Below are positions 24,027 through 27,000 of a stretch of DNA of 64,000 bases, piece by piece. A program made the position numbers. Every line of letters starts with the position of its first letter. Positions within the stretch are counted from its first letter, which is position 1. The stretch lies in NCBI RefSeq assembly GCF_001677475.2, contig NZ_CP012498.1. The stretch is one strand, 5' to 3'. Source of the stretch: Escherichia coli (lineage in GTDB: Bacteria; Pseudomonadota; Gammaproteobacteria; Enterobacterales; Enterobacteriaceae).

Positions 24027-27000
24027 TAAATGTCAGGCTCCGTTATACACAGCCAGTCTGCAGCCATGGTACCGGCAGTGTATTCTGCCGGACAGTCTCC
24101 ACAACTTCCTGTTGTCATTGATTATCCGGCAGCTCTGGCACTTCGCCAGATGTCGATGGTCCATGATGAACTGCCGAAATATCTGCTGGCTCTGGAAGTG
24201 AGTGCCCTGCTCCATTACGTCCGGATCTGCGCCGCAAGATGCTGCTGGCCACACTGTGGAACACCGGTGCGCGCATTAATGAAGCACTGGCGCTGACACG
24301 GGGGGATTTTTCGCTCGTGCCTCCGTATCCGTTTGTGCAGCTTGCGACCCTGAAACAACGGACCGAAAAGACAGCCAGAACGGCAGGAAGATCGCCGGCC
24401 GGTAAGCAGACTCACCGGCTGGTTCCGCTCTCTGATGCCTGGTACGTCAGCCAGCCGCAGACGATGGTGGCAACACTGAAAATCCCCATGGAGCGGCGTA
24501 ACCGTCGCACCGGCAGAACAGAGAAAGTGAGGATCTGGGAAGTGACGGACAGAACAGTCAGGACCTGGATTGGGGAAGCGGTTGCCGCCGCTGCTGCTGA
24601 CGGTGTGACGTTCTCTGTTCCTGTCACACCACATACATTCCGCCACTCCTATGCGATGCATATGCTGTATGCCGGTATTCCACTGAAGGTCCTGCAGAGC
24701 CTGATGGGGCATAAGTCCATCAGCTCAACAGAGGTCTACACGAAGGTGTTTGCACTGGATGTGGCTGTACGGCACCGGGTGCAGTTTGCGATGCCTGAGT
24801 CCGATGCAGTGTCTATGCTCAAAAGAATTCCTTAAGTTCTGACTTTTTTAAATCCCTTTCGGATATCTCATGGATATATTATCGGTATTTCATATTCTGT
24901 TGACATGCCGGACTGGTATAGAGTAAAAAAACATCTGTTGAGTACCTCTTGGATATCCGAAAGATGTCTTTGGGGTTCTTTATGGGTATTACATTTGGAT
25001 TCTGGAGATACACTATGCCTGTTATTGCTAATACGCATCCCAAAGGTGGTGTGGGTAAGACAACTTCATCCGTAAACATTGTTGGTGAAATGAAGTCTGA
25101 TACAGTTGATCTGGATACTCATACTGGGCTTTCTATCATTCTGGGGCTGAGACCTGAAGGAAAAGAAATTTCCGTGAAAGTACCCAAAACAGTGGATGAG
25201 TTAATCGAAATTATGACTCCCTACAAGAACAGCGATAAGACGTTACTTATTGACTGTGGGGGATTTGACTCAGATCTTACCCGTACTGCGATTGCCTTTG
25301 CAGACTGCGTTATTGTCCCTTCAAAAGATTCCCTGACTGAGCGTATTGGTTTGATGCATTTTGATGGAGTACTGGACGAAATCAGCTCTATCATGGGGAC
25401 CGATATAATTGCTCACCTGTATCTCTGTAAAGTTAATCCTAACAAGAAGAAATTCCCTAAGCTTGATGCAATCCTGCCATCGTTCAAACATCTGAAGCTG
25501 ATGAAGAGCCGCATTTCTGCTCGTGCAGAATTTGAGGATGTCATTGAGACTGGGATGGGAATCACTGAGTCTGTTCATGGGCGCTATTCGGCAGGAGGTA
25601 AGGAAGTTATTGCCCTGATCGAAGAAATCAATCATCTGATTGAAAATAATAAACAGTAAGGTATATCAATTGGGTATCCATATAGTATCCTTTAGGCTTT
25701 TAATAGATATCTTTTGAGTATCTAACAAACATCCTGGGTTATCTCATGAGCAAAGCGAAATTTAGTGCACAGGCTGAAAAACTGAAAAACCTGGTGGATT
25801 CTGCCAGATTACAAACTTCTTCTTCTGCCGTAATAGCAACAGTCCCGTCTCAGCCAAATGAAGGTGCAGAGGAAGTTTCAGGTCGTCCCGTAGCTGCCAG
25901 GACGAAGGCTAAGAATCTTAAGGCCATACCGCTGTCGTATTTTGAAGCTCATGCGGAACTTAAAGCGACCAGTAAAACATCTCTGGATTTTAGCTCATAT
26001 ATTATTGAGGCTATAAGAGAGAAGCTTGAACGTGACGGTGCAATAGGTCAATAATTCATAGGATACCTTTAGGGTATCTGATGGGTGTCTTTTAAATGCG
26101 TTATGGGGATTCTTCAGGTACCTAAAGAGTCCTCATTAGACATCTTTCTGTATATGGTGACATGATTCGTCACCGCTTTCCTTTCCTCTCAGTTTCACCA
26201 TTTCATTCCTTTTCCCTTAACCTGAACCATGATGTCAAAGATGTTTTTATATTGCATTTATGTATCACATATAACCTTCATAATATTTTTGTATCTATGA
26301 TTTCCTCTGGTCTTAAAGTTGTGTGTACAATATACATGCAATTTATCGTGTTTTTATGTTGCATTTGTCCTTTCAGAAAGACCATTTTTTCATTATAATT
26401 GAATATAAATTGTATGTATGAAGTATGTTTGTTTTTTCTATTTGTTTATGAGCAACGGAGACTGGTTATGAAAATCTTTATTGATGATGGTTCTACCAAC
26501 ATTAAACTTGCCTGGTTGGAGGATGGTGACGTGAAAACGCTAATCAGCCCTAACAGCTTTAAACCGGAATGGTCTTTTAGTTTACTGGATGATGCTGCCC
26601 CGGCTAATTACGAGATCGACGGCGAGAAGTTTTCATTTGATCCATTAAGTGCTGATGCTGTCGTAACGACTGAAACACGCTATCAGTACAGTGATGTGAA
26701 TGTTGTGGCCATTCAGCATGCGCTACAGCAGACCGGCCTGAAAGCGCAGCCTGTTGATGTCATCGTCACATTGCCGATCTCTGAATACCTTGACGCCAAC
26801 AATCAGAAAAATAAGCAAAACATTGAAAGAAAGAAAAAAAATGTGATGCGTGAAGTACGGGTGCAGGGGAGTGATGCATTTGTTATTCGCAGTGTTTCCG
26901 TTCTTCCTGAAAGTATTCCCGCTGGTTTCAGTGTTCTTGCGGGGCTTGAGGATGATGAATCCCTTTTGATCGTAGATCTCGGTGGTACAACTCTTGATGT

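Follow-up and report, generated by a model that had tools for sequence, protein, structure and literature searches.

A frameshifted resD gene beside a one-armed rfsF remnant on an enterohaemolysin plasmid of Escherichia coli

Directly downstream of the ccdAB addiction genes on contig NZ_CP012498.1 of Escherichia coli, a homologue of the F-plasmid recombinase gene resD switches reading frame within its first third, which raises the question of whether the gene is genuinely broken and what its loss would mean for the plasmid. The DNA analysed here, a stretch of 64,000 nucleotides (the window, to whose positions all coordinates refer unless another sequence is named), is part of a large, IS-rich enterohaemolysin (ehx) plasmid. 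It carries ehxCABD at 13697–20820, many IS3-family elements, one IS21 and two group II introns. An earlier note on this DNA had attributed the frame switch to the loss of one base relative to F resD, and held that the loss of multimer resolution would matter for plasmid stability unless the break was a sequencing error.

The resD lesion and its inheritance

The resD homologue occupies 806 nt on the plus strand (24030–24835) and starts immediately 3′ of ccdB. A single C is missing at codon 65, where a CCC run has shrunk to CC (GTCCCGGAT to GTCCGGAT). Window positions 24210–24239 read ctccattacgtCCggatctgcgccgcaag, where plasmid F and the two closest intact relatives, pCFSAN004179G (NZ_CP012501) and Escherichia sp. 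HH091_1A pla1 (NZ_AP025748), read ...TACGTCCCGGATCTG.... Both relatives are 99.3% identical to the window over ccdAB–resD, and in both resD is annotated as a 268-aa site-specific integrase. The missing C is the sole indel of resD in alignments with these two plasmids and F, and alignment of the whole gene revealed no second indel that would restore the frame.

The loss of one base relative to F resD is therefore borne out by alignment with F and with both intact relatives: F has CCC where the window has CC, and the window contains no continuous frame. The frame switch had been placed at 24226–24232; the break itself stands, and its exact place moves 5–10 nt upstream to the deletion at 24221–24222. 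The protein reading proposed on its two sides, ...LHYV and then (PD) LRRKMLLATLWNTGAR, is correct. In place of a continuous frame of ~268 codons, the gene is split into ORFs of 88 and 198 aa (Table 1). Only the 198-aa ORF matches Pfam Phage_integrase, and the residues R82, H202, R205, H228 and Y237 (R, H-x-x-R, H, Y) are all encoded in the second frame, 3′ of the break; the match and the five catalytic residues confirm that the catalytic C-terminal part is kept there. Putting the C back in silico yields a 268-aa protein with 249 of 268 residues identical to F ResD (93%), which, with ccdA–ccdB directly upstream, identifies the gene as a resD orthologue.

Table 1. Coordinates of the features discussed, as positions in the window.
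Feature	Position	Strand	Details
isrC Hfq-binding sRNA	9433–9555	−	full-length Rfam match, 146.6 bits; among IS fragments
rfsF remnant	21670–21697	+	spacer ACCCCAAG at 21680–21687; right arm TTCCGGATCC at 21688–21697
IS3-family element, 1,415 bp	21758–23172	−	orfA 22624–23124, orfB 21785–22564; Pfam HTH_28/HTH_Tnp_1 and rve
ccdA antitoxin	23504–23722	+	intact, 72 aa; Pfam CcdA, E=4e-27, full length
ccdB toxin	23724–24029	+	intact, 101 aa; Pfam CcdB, E=2.3e-32
resD 5′ fragment	24030–24296	+	88-aa ORF: 64 native codons and 24 out of frame, then stop; no Pfam match
1-bp deletion site	24221–24222	+	CCC run (V64-P65, GTC CCG) reduced to CC; alignments with NZ_CP012501, NZ_AP025748, AP025755/742/752 and F
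resD 3′ part	24239–24835	+	198-aa ORF from native M71, second frame; Pfam Phage_integrase PF00589, E=2.7e-16
ParA-like ATPase and 102-aa ORF, then ParM/ParR	within 25015–27857		ParM/ParR pair 26468–27857
Second ParM	51480–52487	−	within partition region 51085–52487

The resD frameshift is a genuine inherited allele, for which independent assemblies provide the basis in place of raw reads, and the sequencing error left open by the earlier note is ruled out by ~24 independent contigs and RefSeq plasmid NZ_AP042571. In a collection of 15 billion proteins, 19 contigs from NCBI and Logan encode exactly the 198-aa product and 23 the 88-aa product. Look-ups for the truncated products turned up about 24 contigs, derived from runs and assemblies independent of one another; the carrier datasets include SRR24416025, SRR7842148, SRR29091313, SRR3989528, DRR588742 and GCA_036681075.1. 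Logan contigs from SRR24416025 and SRR29091313 are 100% identical to the window over 4.1–4.8 kb, and contigs from SRR7842148 and GCA_036681075.1 each differ from it by 3 SNPs; differences of 0 or 3 SNPs indicate a small clade and not one isolate sequenced again. GCA_036681075.1 is the MiSeq and PacBio hybrid assembly, at 243x, of E. coli MFDS1009736, an O148:H7, ST1780 STEC/ETEC hybrid from livestock faeces collected in Korea in 2017 (PMC10223106). The identical C deletion is present in the complete RefSeq plasmid pOkiPb01695_1 (NZ_AP042571; bovine faeces, Okinawa), in which PGAP entry ACZ5DF_RS24990 reads 'resolvase; frameshifted; incomplete'.

An error of sequencing or assembly, with CCC and an intact resD on the real plasmid, would fit a lesion of one base in a short homopolymer that none of the complete PLSDB plasmids has. 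A 60-mer search found the deletion allele in 0 of 1,930 PLSDB plasmids that match the same resD stretch, an absence which indicates that the allele is confined to a narrow lineage; among RefSeq E. coli it was found in NZ_AP042571 only. The chance of such an error is negligible, however, as the same truncated proteins come from various runs and centres (SRR, DRR and GCA), the carriers range from short-read Logan assemblies to a polished hybrid assembly, and a complete RefSeq plasmid has the same deletion. Furthermore, resD has four private non-synonymous changes, and the window is not indel-prone: over 10.4 kb it differs from NZ_CP012501 by two indels only, one of them intergenic and the other the resD deletion.

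With the C lost at codon 65, translation from the resD start breaks off after 64 native and 24 nonsense residues. In alignments, ResD residues 46–96 match the beginning of the catalytic domain in XerD and in a XerC-like recombinase, so that the frameshift falls within this domain, ahead of the first catalytic arginine, R82. No Shine–Dalgarno sequence was found ahead of the ATG of the 198-aa ORF, whose start sits within an overlapping out-of-frame ORF, and neither an X XXY YYZ slippery heptamer nor a long A/T run was found at the junction ACGTCCGGATC. From these three features, it appears that no active recombinase would be made from this resD.

Two ways around the break can be envisaged. A programmed −1 ribosomal frameshift, or transcriptional slippage, at GTCCGG could give full-length ResD at a low level, and a −1 slip exactly there would restore V64-P65-D66. 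Such recoding can be given virtually no credence: the slippery motif and the A/T run are missing, the ~1,900 other plasmids that match the resD stretch all lack the deletion, so that the site is not conserved, the substitution pattern is one without purifying selection, and ResD has no target site left. Alternatively, the 198-aa ORF (M71–P268) might be translated alone and work as an N-terminally truncated recombinase. It retains the five catalytic residues and its Phage_integrase score, but this reading is only marginally less far-fetched. The ATG has no Shine–Dalgarno sequence and lies inside an out-of-frame ORF, and such an enzyme would be without the entire N-terminal segment and residues 46–70, aligned to the first helix of the catalytic domain in Xer proteins. 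It would also carry L143P, A97V and A247V, none of which is seen in intact alleles, and NZ_AP042571 has lost this part of the gene outright.

The rfsF site, its flanks and other stability functions

The ResD target rfsF is a 28-bp site of two 10-bp inverted arms and an 8-bp spacer, with the pattern AGATCCGNAANNNNNNNNTTNCGGATCT (PMC8299605), and in F-type RepFIA regions its place is upstream of oriV1 and ccdAB (PMC4398462). F (NC_002483) has a perfect match at 45922–45949. Within the 64-kb window no match was found at up to three mismatches, so that the module has no cognate site there, and the entire 242-kb pCFSAN004179G likewise has no rfsF despite its intact resD. The window retains a remnant (Table 1), in which the place of the left arm (21670–21679) is taken by TCCTGGCATT, an unrelated pO157-type sequence. 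The window, pCFSAN004179G and the HH091_1A plasmid all read TCCTGGCATT-ACCCCAAG-TTCCGGATCC, that is, spacer and right arm only.

To its right, the remnant runs on in the manner of pETEC_80 and pDLI.5a, whose sites are complete (AGATCCGGTT-TCTGTGAG-TT(A/C)CGGATCC). To its left, as far as ...CATTACCCCAA, it follows pO157-type plasmids, where the sequence leads into the int–repFIB region. Alignments with F, pETEC_80, pDLI.5a and a pO157-type plasmid locate the homology breakpoint inside the crossover spacer. As relatives with intact resD have the same half-site, rfsF was most likely lost before resD acquired its frameshift. A diverged, one-armed or outside-window site might still serve ResD. The cost to plasmid stability that the earlier note had attached to lost resolution is probably moot, given that neither the window nor the 242-kb relative with intact resD has a canonical rfsF.

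A further motif, GTCCTGGCATTACCCCA(A/T)TTCTCCCAA(A/T)AACGG, occurs at 21670–21687 in the window, at 76397–76430 in pCFSAN004179G and at 2785–2830 in a pO157-type locus (L024). It recurs upstream of the repFIB-adjacent tyrosine recombinase gene in two plasmid backgrounds, with homology starting at the motif, and has ACCCCAA in common with the F rfsF spacer. This motif may be the own site of the repFIB-adjacent recombinase.

The 1,415-bp IS3-family element is inserted upstream of ccdA, 60 bp past the rfsF remnant, and separates this remnant from the ccd operon. It is flanked by a 3-bp target duplication, GTT (21755–21757 and 23173–23175), and the window segments 16063–21758 and 23173–27882 are contiguous in NZ_CP012501, with a 4-base overlap. 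An identical (100%) second copy lies in inverted orientation at 39853–41267, 16.7 kb away. In GCA_036681075.1 (locus L004), the ccdA-side copy is flanked beyond by the HEPN-like gene region that is found near 41.8 kb in the window, and this exchange of flanks points to an inversion between the two IS copies in MFDS1009736. The insertion also splits an imperfect inverted repeat, CACATGATGTGGTGTCC ... GACACTGTATGTTGTG (21733–21757 and 23176–23195), which is kept downstream of rfsF in F, pETEC_80, pDLI.5a and p.E166-P2 and could be a candidate oriV1 or ResD-binding element. Beyond the element, ccdB does not differ from that of the nearest relative, pCFSAN004179G. A private ccdA change, D21G (window 23565, codon 21), is absent from F, pCFSAN004179G and pOkiPb01695_1.

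Several partition loci (Table 1), together with intact ccdAB, may compensate for lost dimer resolution. A search for a backup resolution system applied Pfam to 30 further ORFs of the window, 29 of them of at least 150 aa; these encode transposases, group II intron reverse transcriptases, ParM and a DNA methylase, and no second recombinase or resolvase was found among them. A fuzzy search detected no cer- or dif-like Xer site in the window. The relatives, which are IncFIA+FIB(+FII) mosaics, have another tyrosine recombinase adjoining repFIB. Scanning for promoters and terminators yielded no more than consensus matches at about the level of chance, and the Rfam matches in the window, two group II introns and isrC, lie away from resD.

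One of these introns (53113–57873, minus strand) is split by the IS21 (istA 53677–55176, istB 55173–55928), with Rfam domain V–VI at 53114–53190, D1–D4 at 57725–57873 and its reverse transcriptase ORF at 55819–57330. The other (61337–63634) is intact, has an RT-HNH ORF and is only distantly related to the first. At 327–2889, the window also holds gentisate-pathway genes for a fumarylacetoacetate hydrolase family protein, a GST-type maleylacetoacetate isomerase and a 3-hydroxybenzoate 6-monooxygenase; pCFSAN004179G has the same set.

Decay of resD and competing explanations

Substitutions in resD were polarised with F, pETEC_80, pDLI.5a, p.E166-P2 and the close relatives. The changes private to the window lineage are four non-synonymous (P55L in the 5′ fragment; A97V, L143P and A247V in the 198-aa part) and zero synonymous. 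Between intact resD alleles, the pairwise ratios of non-synonymous to synonymous changes are 16:49, 18:40, 14:40 and 18:45. Fisher's test of 4:0 against 16:49 gives p=0.0056 for the window lineage alone, and 8:0 against 16:49 gives p=5.5e-5 when the window and sister pseudogene lineages are pooled. Purifying selection on the broken gene is relaxed, on small counts of four substitutions in each lineage. The deletion is older than P55L, as resD of NZ_AP042571 has the deletion and keeps the ancestral P55; in that plasmid the gene is further shortened at its 3′ end, after the position matching window 24251.

The sister lineage comprises the cryptic-clade Escherichia plasmids AP025755, AP025742 and AP025752, which belong to the same plasmid family as the window (~99% identity). 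Their resD has an intact CCC run and a shared +A frameshift at the position matching window 24428, and their private resD changes (V28A, V140L, M154R and R159C) are all non-synonymous (4/4). In all three, the rfsF remnant, ccdA and most of ccdB have given way to an IS21 fragment. The +A lesion is probably real, and resD would then have been lost on at least two independent occasions in this family of plasmids.

The consensus quality of the sister plasmids is open to some doubt from homopolymer indels elsewhere. Compared with the window, AP025755 has single-base indels in long A/T runs of ehxB and ehxD (window 18085, 19734 and 20084), and neither gene has an entry in the PLSDB gene table for AP025755, AP025742 or AP025752. 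These indels reflect either real haemolysin-exporter pseudogenes or homopolymer consensus errors. A consensus error was also considered for the +A lesion and set aside, as that lesion is not in a homopolymer, is common to all three plasmids and is accompanied by four private substitutions.

Taken together, it is very probable that resD of the window is a genuine inherited pseudogene whose loss was tolerated because its rfsF substrate had already gone, with neutral decay thereafter. It is proposed that rfsF was reduced to the spacer and one arm in the common ancestor with the intact-resD relatives, the likely cause being a crossover within the spacer that joined the ccdAB–resD module to pO157-type DNA flanking ehx. 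Left with no substrate and freed from selection, resD would have decayed independently in at least two sublineages and kept gaining amino-acid changes; the ccdAB genes just upstream appear to have stayed intact. The window lesion is a fixed feature of one lineage of ehx virulence plasmids from STEC/ETEC-type E. coli. If multimers are still resolved, this would have to depend on something outside the module.

A more specific version of the crossover can be put forward tentatively, as a possibility with a reasonable but not a leading claim. A ResD-type spacer crossover between rfsF and a pO157-type pseudo-site that shares ACCCCAA (7/8 bases) may have fused ccdAB–resD–par to ehx, after which the orphan recombinase would have decayed at least twice. 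The reciprocal product of such a crossover was not found in pCFSAN004179G; the search there yielded only a second native copy of the pO157-type site, located upstream of the int–repFIB genes. If this version is true, the half-site would be a datable scar of recombinase-mediated plasmid fusion.

The inactivation of ResD could instead have been selected, by blocking rfsF-type fusion and resolution and so locking a multi-replicon cointegrate virulence plasmid in place. ResD/rfsF mediates reversible plasmid fusions (PMC8299605), which lends this idea some appeal, as do the mosaic make-up of the relatives and the repeated loss of resD in the family. Adaptive loss is nevertheless unlikely. A one-armed site leaves ResD nothing to resolve, so that neutral decay is enough; relatives with the same half-site keep an intact resD; and IS elements and other pseudogenes abound in the plasmid family.

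Under the preferred reading, neutral decay of a gene without a substrate, resD is an ordinary pseudogene, part of a ResD/rfsF module in decay, and RefSeq already lists a gene with this lesion as a pseudogene. Beyond correct annotation, the finding matters little and raises no new question. In the STEC/ETEC-type ehx lineage, resD is to be annotated as a pseudogene and the ResD/rfsF dimer-resolution module as defunct. Plasmid stability must rest on other functions, namely intact ccdAB, the ParA-like locus and the two ParM loci in the window, plus those outside it. Both the one-armed junction at rfsF and the two resD lesions, which arose independently, can serve as markers for the assembly and divergence of mosaic virulence plasmids.

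Relation to known recombination systems

The module in the window is a defunct member of the known ResD/rfsF system, in which both the continuous ORF and the cognate site have failed. F-type ResD/rfsF is named as a dimer-resolution module in bioRxiv 10.1101/2024.03.26.585537. The gene order ccdA–ccdB–resD and the catalytic motifs are common to the window and to F, whose ResD (D protein) is encoded at 46866–47672 of NC_002483. The remnant has the same spacer, ACCCCAAG, as F rfsF, and its right arm agrees at 8 of 10 positions. Unlike F, the window has a resD broken at codon 65, no left arm of rfsF and an IS between the site remnant and the operon. Downstream of resD, the window has ParA-like and ParM/ParR genes, whereas F has repE–sopABC.

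Among the plasmids with an inactivated gene, pOkiPb01695_1 is like the window in its 1-bp deletion and in its ehx–ccdAB–resD context. It differs in keeping P55 and ccdA D21, in having another IS3-family remnant upstream and in the deletion of the rfsF remnant. AP025755, AP025742 and AP025752 resemble the window in that resD is inactivated and has only non-synonymous private changes, and differ from it in their +A lesion, their intact CCC run and the IS21 fragment upstream.

Dimer-resolution sites of plasmid tyrosine recombinases consist of two inverted arms around a crossover spacer of 6–8 bp (PMC5587640). XerCD/cer, Cre/loxP of P1 and Rsd/crs of Salmonella virulence plasmids belong to the same tyrosine-recombinase superfamily as ResD, and their likeness to the module in the window is one of analogy only.
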